A DNA stretch of 20,000 nt, from IMG/VR virus record IMGVR_UViG_3300027754_000076; one strand, written 5' to 3'. The position numbers and the translations under genes are program-made. Under the pieces are notes generated by a model. The model was not told the origin of the DNA, did not search any database, and was given only the letters and a program-made list of their open reading frames with translations. Shown here piece by piece: positions 2,591-19,986 of this stretch (the stretch's first letter is position 1; each line of letters opens with the position of its first letter). Source of the stretch: an uncultured virus (IMG/VR IMGVR_UViG_3300027754_000076) (taxonomy: Duplodnaviria > Heunggongvirae > Uroviricota > Caudoviricetes).

Positions 2591-5500
2591 GCGAGGGGCA
2601 CGTTGAGGATGATGGCGTCCTGGTCGATGGGCGCGAAATACAGAGAGGCATTGCTAGCCGTGCAACAGTCGGTGGGGCCGGCCACGTTCTTGGCGATGAC
2701 GAAGACGCCGGACGGACCGACCGCGGTGTGCAGCGTGCCCGTGGCGGACACGAAACGGCACGTCGTCACGTCCACGACCTCGGTGGAGTATTTCCAAGCA
2801 TAGACGCCGCCGTTGACCGTCAGCCAGGCGCCCGCGCTGTTGCAGGCCGTGCCGTCGGCCAGGAGCACGATGGATGATTTCGGCGTCTCGGTGGTGACGG
2901 TGTATTTCGTGAGCAGCTCGCCGTTGGTCGCGAGCATGTCGGACCACGCGGGCTGAAAGGCGTTGGCGGCGTTGGCATCGACCAGCGACCAGCGCCATTT
3001 CTGATCACGGCGAAAGGCATTCAAATACCACGCACCGCCACCGGGGCAGACCGTCAGATCGGGTCGGGCGCCGGCGGTGGACTGGCAATAGGTCGCGGCG
3101 GAATAGCCCACGTCCGCGCCGGTGGCGACATCGCCCGGTGTGGCGCTGCCGTAGCCGCGCAGATTGCCGATGGTCGTGCAGGAGAGCGCGGAGCCGTCGG
3201 CGGCGTTGTAGCCGTTGAACGTGACCGGCAGGCCCGTGTTGGTCGTGCCCACGTCGGTCTCGAACTGATACGGCACCATCACCCGGAAACGGGTCAGCAG
3301 ATTGCAGATGCGCGCGAGCCAGTTGAACTGCTCGGCGGCGCAGAGGGTGGCGGGCACCACGCCGTAACCGCTCGGGGCATCGGTGCGGGCATCGGCGGCA
3401 GGGATGCGCGTGGTGGGCGTGGCCGCGAGCGCGGGCACCCAGGCGAGGCCGTTGGCATCGAAACAGGCATTCGGCCACGTGTAGTCAAACACGCTCTCGT
3501 AGCCCAGCGTGCAGCCCATCTCTTCGGTCGTGCGGCCATCGACGCAGCCTTCGCACATCAGCCGCAGATAAAGCTCCGCCGTGCTCAGGGCATCAGAGCG
3601 CAACGGCGAGTCGGCATCGCTGGGGCTGTTGTTCGTGTCCTCGTAGGGTTTTTCGAGCAGCTTGACGAAGTAGAACGACGGGTAGCAGGTCGCCGTGGGC
3701 TTGTCCGGGTAAGTCTGCACCACGGAGTTCTTCGCCTGGTCGCCGAGTTTCCATGTGGGCGTGTGGGCGTGCTCGCTGGCGAGGTAGTCGCGGAGGCCAT
3801 TCTCGTCGGTGCGGTAGGCTTCGGCATCGAGGTTGGCCAGATTCCACGTGGTGTAATCCGAAGAAATATCCCCGGCAGCCAGAGCGGTCGGCGTGCAGTG
3901 AAGCCGGCCCGAAAGCGTGACCTTGACCAGCGTGGTGTTGCCTTCGCCGGCCACGGTCTCGGTCTTCTCGACTTGGAGGCAGGGCTCGTAAAGGCGGCAG
4001 CTTGAATAAAAGTCCGCCGTGGCGGAGGCGTTGGTCGCGTAGCCTCCGGCCTTGGCGTAGCGGTAGGAGGTCGGCGCTTCCGGGGCGAGCCAGATTTTCT
4101 CGCCCTGGGCAAACTGCCAGCGGAGATCCGCGGGCAGTGTGGTGGCGTTGTAGTCGGGGTAAAACTGGCAGCGCTCGGAAAACGCGAAGTAGTCCGAATA
4201 TGCGCCCGGCTTCCAGATCGAGGATTCGTTCGCCCGGTAGGCTTTCAGTTGCAGGCCCATGACCCATTCGCGGGATTCGCCGGTCGGCTCGGCGTTCGCG
4301 CGGATGCCGTTGGCCTCATACACCAGCCCGTTGCCGGTGTAGTTCAGATCGTCGCGCCCGGCGGTGAAGGTGGTGCCGGCGGGATAATACGCGCCCGCAT
4401 AGCCGACGCCGCCGGTGGTCACTTTGTAGGTGCGACCCCATACCAGCGAACCGCTCGCGATGGGCGTGAGCGCGGGGCCGAGATCGTCGAAAATATCACC
4501 CGCCACCGGCGTGGACAGCGACGGCGGCAGCGTGATGGGCGCGGACAGGAACACCTTGGACCCGGCAAAGTTGACCGTGTAGCCGGTGACCGCGGCGAGG
4601 CCGGTGAAAGTCTGCCCGTCGGTGTAGGTCACGGCGTTGTAATCAATCGATGAACTCGCGCCGGCGCCGCCCACGATGTAGATAGTGTCGGCCGAGATTT
4701 CGCCGGTGGGCACTTCGTTGCTGGGCGGGGCCGTGCCGCCGCTCTGATACGCGCCGAGGCCGTAGCCGTAGGCGAAGCGATTGAACCACAGGCACGACTT
4801 GCCATTCTCGACGGCGTAGGCGGTGAGCTGGAAACGGTTCAGCAGGCGCACGCGCTTCGAGAGCTGGCGGGCGGATTCCATCACGGCGTTGGTGTTGATT
4901 TCGCCGAGCCCTTCGTAAAGTTGGACCGCATCATCGCGGTTGATGATGGCGCCCCACCGGAAATAATTGTCGCCGAGGGTCTTCGCCGATTCTTCGGTCA
5001 GACCGCTGCCGTCGGTGCCGTCGGTGGGCACCGTGCGCGCGCCGGCGAGGCGCAGGACAAGCGTCCAGTCGTGATGTTGCGGCAGATAGTCGAGCAGCTC
5101 GGCCAGCTCCACCAGGAGGCCGCCGGAGGCGCTGGTGAGCCGGGCGCCGCTCTCCACCTTGAACGTCAGCGCGCCGGTGGCGGGGGCATCGAGGACGAGC
5201 ACGTCCTCGGCATGGCCTCCCGCGTCCGGGGTCAGGGTAACTCTCCCAACCTCGACCCCGGCCGCGAAAATGACAATGGTCGCCGCTTCGGCGAGCTTCT
5301 CCGCCCCGAACAGCACCGCCGGCACGACGAAGCCCGCAGCGACATAGTGCGTGGTGGCCCCGGTGGCGCGGTTGTGCAGCGCCTGATTGCCGGGCACGTT
5401 GGTGGCCCCGGTGAACTCATACACCGGATACTCCACCGCGACCGTCTCGGGGTCGGTCTGCACGCCGAGCGCGGGGGCGAGCAGGTATTGCGAGGTAAAG

Positions 5501-15755: not shown

Positions 15756-17552
15756 TCAGGGCCCGGTCTTCTCGGTTTCGCCGCGGTCCTGGCCGTAGTA
15801 GCCGAGGAGGCGGGCGTGGATGTTGGCCATGACTTCGCAGTCGAAGGCGTGGTTGGGGCCGACTTTGTGCCATTCGCTGACCCATTCCTCGGGGTTGCGC
15901 GGGTGGCGTTTGATGCGGAGGACTTCGCCGGCGCGTTGCTTGCGATACTCGGCGCCGGTGTTGCGGGCGGCGGTGTGCAGTGGGCGGCCCAGGGCGTCGT
16001 GGGCGTCGGTGATGGATTTCAACGAATCCTTGGCGGCGCGGCTGACAAAATTGTATTGCAAACAGACGGGCGCGGAGCGGCTTTGGCCGCCCATGAAGGC
16101 GTCAATGACGGAGAGTTCGGAGTAGATGCGGCGCAGGCCATCACGCCAGAGGATGGAGCGCTGGGCGGTGGCGGTTTCGCCGATGCCGTTGACGGCGATC
16201 CAGTGGCGAACGGCGCACATCTGGCGGACGCGTTCAGGGGCGTAGTTGCTATCGACGACGACGTTGCCGGCGCGGACGTTGAACCGGGCGCGGATGTCTT
16301 CGAGGTGGCCTTCGGAAATGCCGCGTTCGAAGTGTAGCAGGCGGCTGTGGCCGTAGGTGCCGGGGCGGTTGCTGAATTGCCGGATGACGACCCAGTAGTG
16401 ATCCTGCTGGACATCGACAGCCATCACGCGGAGCGGGGTGCCGTCTTCGGCATCGACGCCTTCGTCGGGCCATGGGTCGCCGAGTTGGTAGTCGCCCTCG
16501 GTGAGCGGCTTGGCGGCCTTGAGATGGCGGGTGGGTGACCACGCACGGACGCGGACCTTGCGGTCGAAATTCTCGGTGGGCACGTAGTCGCCGAGGTGGC
16601 GGGAGTTGCAGGCGTTGAGCCAGTTGCCGACGAGTTCCTCCCACGGGCGAAAGCAGGCGGCTTCGGCGTGCCAGGCGTGGATCTGCGGGTCGCCGCCGGG
16701 GTTGGTGGTGACGTAGCCGGCGCCGCGGGCGGGATCATTGAGCTGCCGCAGGGCGCCGGCGGAGTAGCGGGTGGGGGCTTCGCAGGCGGGACAGACCCAG
16801 CGGGTGGTGCCCTTGGCCACGCCCACCAGCCAGTGGCCGGTGTGGTCGCGGGTGAATTCGTCGGAGTCCCAGCGCAGGCCGCCCTTGCCTTCGGCCTCGC
16901 CGAATTCGAGCGGGACACGTTCGCGGCAGTGCAGACACACGACGCGCCATTCGCGGCGCGGGCTGGCTTTCCAAAGCTGATCGCAGGCATCGCCCTCAGT
17001 GGGGCCCGTCAACGTGAATAGGGTGCGCCTTTGCCAGCCGAAGCTGTCGGCGCGGTGGAGGATTTCGTCAATGGTGCCGGGGTCGTATTGCCACGCTTCG
17101 TCGAGGTAGAGATCGCAGGCGGTGCGACCGTTGCGATGGGCGAGGACATCGGCGGAGAGGAGGGACACGGGCGAATCGACGAAGCGGAAAATACGCTTGC
17201 CACCGCGGCGGTCTTCCTCCTTGGGAAACCGCGCCATGACGGCGGGGGTGGCTTCCATGAGGGGAAACAATTTTTCGTCGCTGAGGGCGTTGGCTTCTTC
17301 GCCGGTCTTGCAATACCAGAGGGAACGCACGGGCTCGACGGCGACGGTGCGGAGGAGGCGCAACTGCAGGAACAACGTCTTGAACACCTGCGGGGGAAAC
17401 AGGAGGAGAAACTTGGCGTTGCGCTCGCGATCTACGGTGGCGGCGATCTCGGTGAGCCACGGGTAATCGGCGGGCACGAAGGGCACGCCGTCGAGGGTCA
17501 CATGGCGGGCGGCCCAAGCGAGGGTGCCGATAAAGGAGGGGGCGCGGGACAT
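15756..17552 (-). CDS. terL: Terminase large subunit, lambda GpA family (598 aa)
   Basis: Deviant Walker A PPQVFKT, Walker B LYLDEAW, CLHC/CPAC pair, nuclease VMAVDVQ and NHAFDCEV. Confidence 0.92.
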   Translation of the reverse strand: MSRAPSFIGTLAWAARHVTLDGVPFVPADYPWLTEIAATVDRERNAKFLLLFPPQVFKTLFLQLRLLRTVAVEPVRSLWYCKTGEEANALSDEKLFPLMEATPAVMARFPKEEDRRGGKRIFRFVDSPVSLLSADVLAHRNGRTACDLYLDEAWQYDPGTIDEILHRADSFGWQRRTLFTLTGPTEGDACDQLWKASPRREWRVVCLHCRERVPLEFGEAEGKGGLRWDSDEFTRDHTGHWLVGVAKGTTRWVCPACEAPTRYSAGALRQLNDPARGAGYVTTNPGGDPQIHAWHAEAACFRPWEELVGNWLNACNSRHLGDYVPTENFDRKVRVRAWSPTRHLKAAKPLTEGDYQLGDPWPDEGVDAEDGTPLRVMAVDVQQDHYWVVIRQFSNRPGTYGHSRLLHFERGISEGHLEDIRARFNVRAGNVVVDSNYAPERVRQMCAVRHWIAVNGIGETATAQRSILWRDGLRRIYSELSVIDAFMGGQSRSAPVCLQYNFVSRAAKDSLKSITDAHDALGRPLHTAARNTGAEYRKQRAGEVLRIKRHPRNPEEWVSEWHKVGPNHAFDCEVMANIHARLLGYYGQDRGETEKTGP

Positions 17553-17618
17553 CAGGGGGCGAGGTAGTAGTTGTTAATCACGGCGAGGCGGCGGGAGGCA
17601 TCACGGACACTGCGGAAC

Positions 17619-17831
17619 TCAACCCAGGCGACTTCTTGCATTTGGGCTTTTCACCCACAGCACGCACAGGGAGTCCCCACTTGGCGCGTCTATTCCGCTT
17701 AGATTGAGTCGCATACAGTATGCAGTATCCTTCCTGCGTTTCCCTATCCAGTGTTTGCAGTTGAAGCAGCACGCCGACCCACGCGCTGCACCTAACCCGG
17801 CCATGCCGCTCTCGTTGCAATCGGTAGTCAT
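17619..17831 (-). CDS. Cassette-like small Cys-rich protein (70 aa, MTTDCNES...CFNCKHW...)
   Basis: ATG at 17831 inside the attC-like loop, ATGA-coupled with the upstream stop; CxxCxxW...C...C. The alternative frame 17578..17820 cannot be excluded. Confidence 0.55.
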   Translation of the reverse strand: MTTDCNESGMAGLGAARGSACCFNCKHWIGKRRKDTAYCMRLNLSGIDAPSGDSLCVLWVKSPNARSRLG

Positions 17832-17864
17832 AGTGGGCCGGGTAGGTGAGCTTGGGCGTTCGGC
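17773..17864 (+). other. Integron attC-like site (complete, 92 bp)
   Basis: gccgacc ... gttcggc outer boxes; inner arms GCTgCACCTAaCCCGGCC / GGCCGGGTAGGTGAGC pair with two extrahelical bases; unpaired spacer between outer and inner boxes. Confidence 0.7.
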
Positions 17865-18073
17865 GGCTCCAGCAGTCCGGCAGCGCCGAGCGCGTTCATC
17901 ATCACCCACCACGAGCGGCTACATTCCGCTTCCCAGCACTCTTGGCAGATGTCGTGGCCTGCCTCGCCCGGCCATGTCATCTCCCCGATCGTGTCTCGGT
18001 TGCAGGCGTGGCAAGCCGACGAACCACGCGCTGCACCTAACCCGGCCATGCCGCTCTCGTTGCAATCGGTAGT
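17779..18073. repeat. 50-bp exact direct repeat (17779-17828 and 18024-18073)
   Basis: ccacgcgctgcacctaacccggccatgccgctctcgttgcaatcggtagt twice, period 245 bp. Confidence 0.95.
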
Positions 18074-18343
18074 TTTCATTGGCCGGCCGTTCGGCGACTC
18101 GCCAAGCACGCATTCGATGGCTTCGCGGGCCGCTTTAGGCCTGCCCACTTTCCAGTCTGTCCGCTCACCGAGGATTCCGATGATACAGAAGCGTTGCTTG
18201 TCCCACTTCGTGACCCAGCTATTGCCGAGCACCCATTTACTGACTCCATTGCGGGAGTCTCTGTGGTATTTCCACCAATGACGCCGAACGTCCGCAGGCA
18301 GCGAATGGCCTTTCTTCGTGTTGGCGGGGCGCAGTTTTTTCAT
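17828..18343 (-). CDS. Hypothetical protein (171 aa); apparent in-frame fusion of two cassette-like ORFs (internal ATG at 18079)
   Basis: Trp/Lys-rich N half; the C half starts MKTTDCNESGMAGLGAARGS (shared with the next ORF) and has CxxC...CxxC. Confidence 0.6.
   Translation of the reverse strand: MKKLRPANTKKGHSLPADVRRHWWKYHRDSRNGVSKWVLGNSWVTKWDKQRFCIIGILGERTDWKVGRPKAAREAIECVLGESPNGRPMKTTDCNESGMAGLGAARGSSACHACNRDTIGEMTWPGEAGHDICQECWEAECSRSWWVMMNALGAAGLLEPPNAQAHLPGPL
18018..18095 (+). other. attC-like site with deleted right inner arm (78 bp)
   Basis: gacgaac ... gttcggc; left arm identical to the first site, right arm lacks gtaggtgagcttggg (net -14 bp). Confidence 0.6.
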
Positions 18344-18349
18344 AGAGAG

Positions 18350-18982
18350 TTACAGCGCCGGAATGGCCGACGCGGCAGGGCAGCCGCAGGGCATGCAGGG
18401 GCCAGGCTCGATCAGCAGGAGATCGAGCTGCGCCTGCTCGCGGCGGAGCAGCTCATGCCATTTGCAGAGGGGCGGCGCGCCGGCGGGTGAAGCGCGCCGC
18501 ATCCGCGCCCGCGCTTGCAGGGGATTCAGGCTGGGGTGCAGCACCACGGCCCGGAAGTCTTCGACGGTGCGTTGCACCAAGGATTTGCTGACGGAGAACA
18601 CGGTGGCGATGCGGTCCATGGGCATGGCGTTGCGCATGTGGGGGGTGAGTTCATAGATTACAATGGCCGCGCGAAGGCCCAAGCGCCGGGCCGCAATCTG
18701 CCCTTCTGTCTCGCGGAGGCGGCTGGCGGCAGATCCGGTGGCCCGCGTTTTGAAATCGCGTCCTGAAGCAATCCAGCCCACGGCGCGCTCGGTCAGGGCG
18801 AACTCATCGCCGCTATGCCGGCGGCGGGACCATTCGGCCACGGCTTGCGCCTGGGCGGCCGTCAGCGGCACGCGGAACCCGGCGAAGTCTTCGCGGATCT
18901 CGTCGAGCGGATCTTCGACGGCAGCCCAGTCGAAGTCGGCGGCTTCGTCGAGGCCGGGGGTGTTTTGAGGATTGCTTAACAC
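18350..18982 (-). CDS. Putative HTH DNA-binding protein (210 aa, GTG start)
   Basis: MPMDRIATVFSVSKSLVQRTVEDFR fits an HTH pattern; acidic N-terminus. Confidence 0.55.
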   Translation of the reverse strand: MLSNPQNTPGLDEAADFDWAAVEDPLDEIREDFAGFRVPLTAAQAQAVAEWSRRRHSGDEFALTERAVGWIASGRDFKTRATGSAASRLRETEGQIAARRLGLRAAIVIYELTPHMRNAMPMDRIATVFSVSKSLVQRTVEDFRAVVLHPSLNPLQARARMRRASPAGAPPLCKWHELLRREQAQLDLLLIEPGPCMPCGCPAASAIPAL

Positions 18983-19066
18983 AGGATTCTTCTTTCGTCG
19001 CCTACCTCACCACCGCAGCGCGGTGGAAAAATTTCCTGCGGTCCCTAGAGGGTGCGTCGCAAAAAG

Positions 19067-19163
19067 CTGGGAAGGCTGGGAAGGGGAAAGGGAAAGACCA
19101 GCTTCGCACATACACGCGTCATGTATGCGTGTAGATTTGTTTTGCCCTTCCCAGCCTTCCCAG
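19067..19163. repeat. 19-bp perfect inverted repeat of tandem CTGGGAAGG 9-mers with an inner palindrome
   Basis: ctgggaaggctgggaaggg (19067-19085) / cccttcccagccttcccag (19145-19163); inner tacacgc-N9-gcgtgta (19111-19133). Confidence 0.9.
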
Positions 19164-19209
19164 AAATCACCTTTACCCGTTTGCATTAGAGAAATAATAG
19201 TCATTTGCC

Positions 19210-19986
19210 TTAGTTCTTCTCAGAGACTGTCAATGGGGAGTAGTCGCCGGGGTTGACGTGGTCGGCGGCGGCGGTGCGGAGTTCGGTCAGAAACCAGTCG
19301 GGCAGGCCGCAGCCGGCGGCGAGGTTTTCGACGCGGGCGAAGGGATCGAGCAGGCCGGCGATGAGGAGGGCGGGCTCGAGGACGTCGGCAGCCTGCGCCT
19401 CGGTGGTGAGCTCCAACAGCTCGGGGGCCAGGGTGTCGCGCAGCCGGCTCAAGGCCACGCACGCCCGGGCGAACCAGGCGCGCACCAGCCGGGCGACCGC
19501 GGCGCGGGCGAGGAGATCGCCGGATTCGATGCCGAGCTGGGCCATCTGCTTGCGGGCGGCGCCGATGTTGGTGGAGAACTTGGCGGCCAGGGCGGATTCG
19601 CGGGTGAGGGTTAGGTTGTCGGGGGTGGGGCCGTTGGCCTGGGCGATCCGGCGGATGCAACCGCGCAGGAGGTCTTCTTGCTGGGCAACGAATTCACGGA
19701 GGCTGCGATCGCCGGGCTCGGCGTCGTCGGCCGAGGCCGGCAAAACCGAGGGCGGCGTCTGGGCGGCGAGGATCTTGTTGGAGCGCTCGCGGACGTGATC
19801 AAGGCAGCGGCCGGCGTGCAGGAGGCGATCCGCCAGCGCGGCATCGTCCGCGCAGACCACGGGGCCGAACCGGGCCACCCACCGCTGCGCCGTGCGCAGA
19901 TGGACCGACCAATCGGAGGCCAACCGACTGGCGGGGGCCGGCGACATGACAGCCGCGGGGATTTGGTTTTGTGCGATATTGCTCAT
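19210..19986 (-). CDS. Putative terminase small subunit, Nu1-like (258 aa)
   Basis: N-terminal HTH-like SRLASDWSVHLRTAQRW; GDLLARAAVARL...LSRLRDTLAPEL resembles the Nu1-type C-terminal helices; TAAGGA 6 nt before the ATG. Confidence 0.5.
   Translation of the reverse strand: MSNIAQNQIPAAVMSPAPASRLASDWSVHLRTAQRWVARFGPVVCADDAALADRLLHAGRCLDHVRERSNKILAAQTPPSVLPASADDAEPGDRSLREFVAQQEDLLRGCIRRIAQANGPTPDNLTLTRESALAAKFSTNIGAARKQMAQLGIESGDLLARAAVARLVRAWFARACVALSRLRDTLAPELLELTTEAQAADVLEPALLIAGLLDPFARVENLAAGCGLPDWFLTELRTAAADHVNPGDYSPLTVSEKN

Follow-up and report, generated by a model that had tools for sequence, protein, structure and literature searches.

The DNA stretch analysed here (the window) comprises 20,000 nucleotides (nt) of an uncultured virus of the Caudoviricetes (IMG/VR record IMGVR_UViG_3300027754_000076), and the subject of this analysis is a region of it, positions 17,619 to 18,343, in which small genes meet at hairpins that resemble attC, the recombination site of integrons. 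Integrons are known mainly as bacterial gene-capture devices. All genes of the array region are on the minus strand: an open reading frame (ORF) of 210 amino acids (aa), an ORF of 171 aa, an ORF of 70 aa, and then the gene of the large terminase subunit (15756..17552; Pfam GpA_ATPase at 7e-21 and GpA_nuclease at 1.2e-6, phrog_15 at 1e-27). Given that the terminase gene adjoins the array downstream, the context of the array is that of a phage.

Sites were located with a covariance model of the hairpin, R1, which was built from nine phage copies only. Searching the whole window with filters off, R1 gives only two sites, which lie 141 nt apart. The complete attC-type site (17766..17869, minus strand, i.e., the gene-sense strand, which corresponds to the attC bottom strand) obtains 99.1 bits with an E-value of 4e-22. 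It is an imperfect hairpin of 104 nt, with the R' box GCCGAAC at 17864-17858 and the R''-side sequence GGTCGGC at 17779-17773, and its single-stranded DNA fold has an energy of -29 to -30 kcal/mol. The z-scores are -3.1 for the plus strand and -3.3 and -3.4 for the minus strand, with 0-2 of 200 shuffles reaching an equal value. These values agree with the original prediction, which was made from the sequence alone and had described one complete attC-shaped hairpin at this place. When aligned with sites of Verrucomicrobiota genome bins and of one phage contig, the site presents a mean column identity of 82% (six sequences), and its likeness to sites from bins labelled Akkermansia and Verrucomicrobiota extends into the loop. 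In its hairpin loop, the stop codon of the 171-aa ORF (17830-17828) and the start codon of the following ORF (17831-17829) overlap as ATGA.

The second attC-type site (18011..18100, minus strand) obtains 51.6 bits with an E-value of 9e-11, and has its R' box GCCGAAC at 18095-18089. Fourteen model positions of its 5' arm (L' side) are missing, and its fold is no better than that of shuffled sequences (z of +0.9 and +1.0). In the reverse orientation R1 yields merely 9.0 bits at the complete site and 7.4 bits at the second, against 99.1 and 51.6 bits, which shows that the model discriminates orientation. The two sites form part of a direct repeat (17755-17841 and 18000-18086) that is 84% identical. 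Within it an exact repeat of 50 nt (17779..17828, equal to 18024-18073) covers the loop and the 3' arm of both sites and encodes the leader that proteins B and C (described below) have in common, TTDCNESGMAGLGAARGS. A second copy with an identical 50-bp arm had been predicted, and the identity is exact, yet this copy is the one that is 14 positions short and has no significant fold. In the assembled contigs of Logan sequencing run X1, one contig of 50 nt corresponds exactly to 18024-18073 and has a depth of 39.8, compared with 14-20 in the adjacent contigs.

Two half-sites had also been proposed. The left one, placed at about 18283-18310, stands in part: an attC 3'-arm remnant (L''-R'' side; 18282..18305, minus strand) matches the 3'-arm motif with zero mismatches just before the core of gene A and has no partner 5' arm, but it is not a covariance-model match in the gene sense, and only an opposite-strand match of 7.7 bits (E 2.9) overlaps it. 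At the same place the homologue P0007 reads GSLQRMVGRR, which is the translation of the family's consensus 3' arm. With up to two mismatches, the window contains four matches to the 3'-arm motif, compared with 0.91 expected, and 2 of 200 shuffles reach four; the GCCNAACG box alone shows no enrichment in the window (3 matches versus 5.95 expected). The right half-site, placed at 17641-17647, did not hold up, as these positions are the Pro-Asn codons of a conserved core motif of family C (N64 is invariant in alignment A3). It was rejected as a fourth half-site, since the homologue P0001 has the Pro-Asn motif plus a separate box further on. R1 finds no site downstream of gene C. The window thus seems to carry a small cluster in partial decay rather than a large, active array.

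The 171-aa ORF (18343..17828) is uninterrupted across two genes, A and B, as the deletion of 14 arm positions in 18011-18100 leaves both in one reading frame with no stop between them. Gene A (18080..18343, minus strand) encodes a small protein that forms the N-terminal part of the ORF (residues 14-93), and its stand-alone homologues have about 60-112 aa (e.g., P0007, with 78% identity and an E-value of 5e-32). Gene B (17828..18079, minus strand) encodes a small Cys-rich protein (CxxC...CQECWE.ECSRSWW) corresponding to residues 93-166, has an internal ATG (18079-18077) that falls within the second site's loop, and also has stand-alone homologues (e.g., P0008, with 72% identity and an E-value of 1.5e-30). 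In a HMMER search at E<=0.001, the best stretch of the 119 matches listed lies either in residues ~10-94 (family A) or in residues ~86-169 (family B), and spans the A/B junction in just 3 of the 119. A single ancestral gene for the 171-aa ORF was therefore rejected, given that each half has its own stand-alone homologues. When viral contigs were scanned with the 171-aa ORF as a single protein nothing was found, whereas alignment-based scans did find relatives.

Gene C (17619..17831, minus strand) encodes a further small Cys-rich protein, of 70 aa (CCFNCKHW...), and starts in the loop of the complete site. Its six homologues (E 3e-13 to 4e-24) have a common core and different N-terminal leaders. 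No Pfam or PHROG family was matched by the proteins A, B and C. Their cores are unrelated, yet they have in common a short stretch before the core (GS-A or CSAS) and a tail (..PN..). B and C, both of which contain CxxC motifs, are 40% identical in BLASTP (E 4e-12), and the 19 residues that their N-termini have in common are absent from the homologues of B and C. This leader, together with the common pre-core and tail stretches, points to a translated nucleotide element and not to a protein domain. The G+C content is 0.53-0.59 in the A and C cores, 0.63-0.67 in B and 0.67-0.73 in the flanks, so the A and C cores are less GC-rich than their surroundings, as had been predicted for the units.

The anatomy of the hairpin was measured in 50 sites from phage-type loci and compared with that published for attC. 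According to the text of Nivina 2016 (PMC5027507), attC sites are imperfect hairpins of one strand, 57-141 nt long, the bottom strand of which carries the R' box 5'-RYYYAAC-3' and the R'' box 5'-GTTRRRY-3', an unpaired central spacer of five to six bases per arm, and extrahelical bases on the L'' arm only, usually a G and a conserved T six base pairs apart. The family sites are 74-147 nt long. In the AAC triplet of the 5' box the three bases are conserved in 50, 45 and 50 of the 50 sites, and in the GTT triplet of the 3' box in 49 of 49, 42 of 50 and 50 of 50. The 3'-arm spacer measures 5 nt in 47 sites and 6 nt in three, and the 5'-arm spacer 6 nt in 27, 5 nt in 18, 7 nt in four and 1 nt in one (the deleted window site). 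A bulged T is found in 50 of 50, and a second bulge lies six pairs away (C in 40, A in six and G in four), both on the gene-sense 3' arm, and the length of the loop varies. The hairpin hence has the published layout of an attC bottom strand: AAC/GTT boxes, spacers of 5-6 nt, and two bulges six pairs apart. The R'' boxes of the window sites, GGTCGGC and GTTCGTC, differ from the consensus, and the R-box register of the family pairs in 74.2% of the cells.

As for the helix itself, 12 of the 22 predicted pairs in the nine-copy phage alignment present compensatory changes. Among the 50 phage-locus sites, 89.4% of the cells pair, compared with 66.3% after shuffling and 21-43% after sliding the partners, and double changes occur at all 16 pairs of the main helix.

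R1 found the element about 200 times, in contigs of other phages as well as in genomes of Verrucomicrobiota and Planctomycetota, and relatives fetched via family B have the hairpin at many gene junctions. A 25-nt motif of the 3' arm occurs in nine viral loci and in 78 stretches of 67 bacterial genome loci, in which R1 yields 161 matches. By record title, and the phylum of the genus named there, 54 are from Verrucomicrobiota and eight from Planctomycetota, and arrays with a spacing of ~500-700 nt are frequent. A gene resembling an integron integrase adjoins the array in seven of the 67 loci, and five of these genes are full-length. Against the curated TIGR02249 cut-off of 265 bits, three of them are above (445.5, 418.5 and 396.5 bits) and two just under (262.9 and 258.5 bits). 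In all seven loci the 5' end of the integrase gene faces the array, and its strand is the model sense strand. The prediction that the hairpins are of attC type thus agrees with the published anatomy, and also with the placing of the window sites in a sequence-structure family whose bacterial members form arrays next to integron integrases.

Some members of the family deserve mention in their own right. A 6.6-kb contig (L157) from a genome bin labelled Akkermansia muciniphila, a gut-type genus, the binning of which may be wrong, carries four attC sites that closely resemble those of the window, loop included. Bacterial cassettes with sites of this family also carry defence-type cargo (L140 6589-7728, and L146 3994-4902 and 5603-5992), namely a Shedu SduA C-terminal domain, an Mrr restriction endonuclease and a HicA toxin. 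Finally, a 45-kb IMG/VR contig classed as viral (L096) has nine sites, and its long ORFs are antisense like those of the bacterial arrays, so that it may come from a bacterial integron or from the edge of a prophage.

The original prediction had further stated that the ORFs run opposite to the usual direction of cassettes. In the bacterial arrays, Pfam matches (E<=1e-5, including SUKH, HicA, Mrr, the Shedu domain and GNAT) were obtained for 14 of the 80 longest antisense ORFs versus none of the 61 longest sense ORFs. Since the Pfam-supported cargo is antisense to the model, the bacterial cassettes are canonical; this, together with the position of the integrase in 7 of 7 loci, identifies the model sense strand as the attC bottom strand. 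The phage-type loci, in contrast, have their genes on the bottom strand, with in-site starts for ORFs with N6_N4_Mtase (2.5e-52), MT-A70 (4e-18) and PAPS_reduct domains. In the window, the bottom strand encodes A, B and C, whose 5' ends carry the attC, and a canonical cassette, with a top-strand ORF and a 3' attC, is not what is found. The opposite orientation is therefore real, and bottom-strand gene orientation is a general property of these phage arrays.

The coding frame is likewise tied to the site. Among the 50 phage-locus sites, the frame in which AAC is a codon is the longest open upstream frame in 42, its stop falls within the site in 48, and an in-site ATG opens an ORF that runs at least 25 codons past the site in 40; stop and start overlap as ATGA in 20. 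After equal usability filters, which left 43 phage and 132 bacterial sites, AAC frame, in-site stop and in-site start occur together in 25 of the phage versus four of the bacterial sites, and ATGA in 16 versus two. The prediction that the ORFs start at a loop ATG and end in the next site as ATGA holds for the window, at 17831-17828, and the pattern recurs among the phage-locus sites. The 3' arm is translated in all three frames across different cargo genes, as expected of a DNA element. Judging from this layout, the attC site may also couple the translation of neighbouring genes, a reading that the recurrent ATGA fits.

Evidence that the units move comes from four related contigs (L071-L074), in which a cassette B of ~272 nt is 99.3-99.6% identical and has three different left and three different right neighbours. 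A second cassette, Y, stands after B in L071 and before B in L073. All six distinct changes of B neighbour, as well as both ends of Y, fall at the AAC box, at a resolution limited to the shared box; the box of cassette B itself reads ACC. The location of these breakpoints indicates that the moving unit consists of the hairpin, the gene and the start of the next box. The attC crossover is placed between A and C of the AAC in the bottom-strand R' box, and the limits of the mobile unit are those that bottom-strand cleavage at AA|C predicts. Hence, a variable unit content with breakpoints at the AAC box (equivalent to G|TT), which had been predicted for relatives, was indeed observed. In Logan run X4, from another study, contigs of a relative (~90-99% alike in the flanks) diverge beyond 17594 and before 18360, with no bridging contig, which suggests that this relative carries other content within 17594-18360. 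In a further contig, L069, cassette B stands behind a cytosine-methyltransferase-like gene, with a site of the same type (95 bits); the gene is named by its PPCQ motif, and no Pfam or NCBIfam match was obtained for it.

With regard to the enzyme, a tblastn search of the 20-kb window with two integron integrases gave a best E-value of 0.58, which agrees with the statement of the original prediction that no integrase is present. A complete integron, with an integrase within the 20 kb, was thus not found, and the window holds an attC cluster lacking an integrase. Such clusters (CALINs) are defined by a minimum of two attC sites (PMC9892861), and the window has two R1 matches 141 nt apart, the second of which cannot fold fully. 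Among five viral records with arrays, none has an integrase-model match at E<=0.001, whereas tyrosine recombinases were found in 14 of 14 control genomes. One of the five records (G003) is a complete phage genome of 58.6 kb with terminal repeats and eight sites in one cluster. A phage tyrosine recombinase, which had been considered alongside a host enzyme, was therefore not found in the window or in these records, and a host integron integrase is probably the simplest candidate. As a separate observation, L069 has a 142-aa ORF directly after cassette B (3192-3617) that corresponds to the N-terminal SAM-like domain of an integron integrase alone (TIGR02249 at 3e-19, positions 4-98 of 315; PF13495 at 9e-23). 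It has no catalytic domain and is followed by a SWIM-finger ORF. The 142-aa ORF may be what is left of an integrase once carried by a phage, or a domain that binds the sites on its own.

Taken together, the two hairpins are likely to be true attC sites of the chromosomal-integron family of Verrucomicrobiota and Planctomycetota, which form a phage CALIN between the gene of the 210-aa ORF and the large terminase. Under this interpretation, the mobile unit would comprise the hairpin, the small gene behind it and six bases, the first ones, of the following AAC box. Excision, insertion or reordering of units would be brought about by an integron integrase that cleaves the folded bottom strand within the AAC box, between A and C; as the phage shows no such enzyme, the host would most likely supply it. 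With phage genes on the bottom strand, AAC would be read as an Asn codon, and the upstream gene would stop and the next one start in the loop, often as ATGA, so that the site would therefore also link the translation of neighbouring genes. In the window, decay would have removed 14 bases from one site, fusing A and B, and reduced the first site to an arm remnant, with no site left after C.

Several points weigh against this interpretation. The L'' bulged base is mostly C (40 of 50), whereas the literature usually has G (PMC5027507), and the window has a single intact site, of which the R'' side reads GGT instead of GTT and the fourth base of R' is a G and not a pyrimidine. The alignments used for counting pairs were fitted to the model, which favours the structure of the model, and the 50 phage sites are non-independent, as contigs L071-L074 carry near-identical copies. 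These four metagenome contigs are short, at 1.4-2.3 kb, and contain no phage hallmark gene; which left neighbour is joined to which right neighbour across a repeated cassette could be the choice of the assembler, although each junction is assembled sequence. Recombination in the window's own phage was not seen, the Logan contigs of four runs containing no joints; rare circles are undetectable in such contigs. Furthermore, no homologue of A, B or C, nor any other cargo, is common to the phage and bacterial arrays examined, and the participation of a host integrase is a step that we infer.

Four other explanations were weighed. The hairpins could now act at the RNA level only, as intercistronic stem-loops for coupling, mRNA stability or processing, having attC ancestry but no recombination. 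In the phage loci every site does belong to the sense strand of genes that run in one direction, stop and start codons fall in the loop and 20 of 50 sites have ATGA, and a window array decayed to one intact site, with no integrase present, would be in keeping with such a role. However, permutations at the AAC box in relatives of 99% identity require a DNA event, and the well-kept features (the bulged T, the six-pair spacing and AAC/GTT) are the ones that an integrase reads and are without evident RNA role. We consider the RNA-only explanation unlikely, and an RNA function is compatible with attC identity as a second function of the sites. Alternatively, ordinary homologous recombination between repeated junctions could shuffle the units with no site-specific integrase, as has reportedly been proposed for the promoter-stem-loop cassettes of T4-type phages. 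The identical stretches within a genome (50 nt in the window and 25 nt in L036) are long enough for phage recombinases. Nevertheless, B and Y swap their order although their leaders differ strongly (58 versus 91 bits), the B/Y joints lie at the 7-nt box instead of being spread across the element, and the same element family adjoins integron integrases in bacteria, for which reasons this explanation seems rather improbable.

The enzyme could also be another recombinase, such as a Xer-like enzyme encoded elsewhere in the phage, with the host integron integrase uninvolved. Only 20 kb of the window phage is known, and the N-terminal fragment of 142 aa in L069 implies that phage copies of an integron integrase exist or existed; that fragment, however, is without a catalytic domain, and an integrase-model match was obtained in none of the five array-bearing viral records (one of them complete), compared with 14 of 14 controls. 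The chance that a different recombinase is at work is small. Least of all can the pattern be ascribed to tandem duplication of paralogous small genes homogenised by gene conversion with no mobile element, which we regard as very improbable. Although B and C have an identical N-terminus of 19 residues, CxxC motifs and the BLASTP similarity given above, they belong to different families beyond the leader, each with stand-alone homologues. Moreover, the element precedes unrelated genes (methyltransferases and others) in other phages, in all three frames, and fills bacterial integron arrays.

In comparison with known systems, the nearest are the phage CALINs of Qi 2023 (PMC9892861), the text of which reports that phages carry attC clusters lacking an integrase, that IntI1 recognises these, and that methyltransferases are among their cargo. 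As in those CALINs, there are at least two attC sites, no integron integrase and a presumed host integrase, and DNA methyltransferases are among the cargo of the related arrays. Unlike what that text describes, the genes here are on the bottom strand and read in frame through both arms, their stop and start codons falling in the loop; the sites are of the family found in Verrucomicrobiota and Planctomycetota integrons, and natural permutations of units occur in relatives. The main text of Qi 2023 (PMC9892861) does not contain the terms "start codon", "opposite" or "Verrucomicrobia", and reports of phage attC clusters are recent and describe ordinary cassettes as far as this source goes. Our literature search listed no paper on bottom-strand, in-frame phage cassettes. 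It is the inverted, in-frame design of the phage arrays that is new, the phage CALINs themselves having already been published.

Sedentary chromosomal integrons have the same attC family in sequence and structure, with the same layout of boxes, spacers and bulges, and the sites within an array resemble one another in both. They differ from the window in that the latter has no integrase, its gene orientation is inverted and its cargo is different, with no common cassette found. A further parallel is provided by the promoter-stem-loop "mobile regulatory cassettes" that Arbiol, Comeau and Krisch reportedly described for T4-type phages in 2010. These too are repeated structured elements 5' of small accessory genes in a variable region, proposed to serve shuffling and expression; they are said to be intergenic, to consist of a promoter and a hairpin and to act through homologous recombination, whereas the element studied here is of attC type, is translated and has its breaks at a fixed triplet.

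These results show one attC family that is common to bacterial chromosomal integrons and several unrelated phages, with opposite gene orientation, and with the coding frame, stop and start built into the phage site. A small stock of accessory genes that can be swapped thus seems to be maintained by the phage. Provided that a host integrase acts on the sites, phages could reshuffle such genes (e.g., those of DNA methyltransferases and small zinc-binding proteins) during infection, and the arrays would offer a natural test case for the orientation, expression and origin of cassettes. More tentatively, phages of Verrucomicrobiota and Planctomycetota might keep their own pool of "inverted" cassettes, in which attC would serve at once as recombination site for the host integrase, in-frame linker and translational coupler. 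As AAC would always be read as Asn, units would plug in behind one another without a frame break. Were this so, small deletions in a site, such as that in 18011-18100, would fuse units into two-domain proteins, and the system would be a DNA-level analogue of exon shuffling for phages.

The remaining observations concern the surroundings of the array and the known relatives of the phage. A search of a GenBank phage collection with positions 17500-18400 gave no matches, and the closest record, the 4.7-kb fragment G001, stops at window position 16937 and does not reach the array. The nearest relatives of the terminase (L003-L007, with 35-36% identity) have no site in the flanks examined (none of five), so that they yield no comparison of the interval between the terminase subunits. 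The upstream neighbour of the array, the 210-aa ORF (18350..18982, minus strand), had been called the small terminase subunit (terS), an assignment that was not borne out: searches of Pfam and PHROG gave no matches, and it shows only a weak sigma-70-like match, at an E-value of 0.005, far under the cut-off. At the other end of the array, a candidate ORF of 29 aa (17552-17641, minus strand) opens with an ATG immediately behind the Pro-Asn motif of gene C and ends with a stop codon that overlaps the start codon of the terminase gene as TGATG.

An Rfam scan of 17000-19200 gave no matches at the array, and only microRNA-like matches on a palindrome at ~19044-19185. This palindrome coincides with another hairpin (19062-19169, minus strand), which lies between a 258-aa ORF (19986..19210) and the 210-aa ORF, in a gap of low G+C content (0.44-0.55). 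The hairpin is long and nearly perfect, with a stem of ~19 pairs made of GGGAAGG-type repeats, an inner palindrome, and a T run 3' of it on the gene strand. Its fold has an energy of -32.5 kcal/mol and a z of -5.2, with none of 200 shuffles as good; it could act as a strong terminator, in regulation or in packaging.

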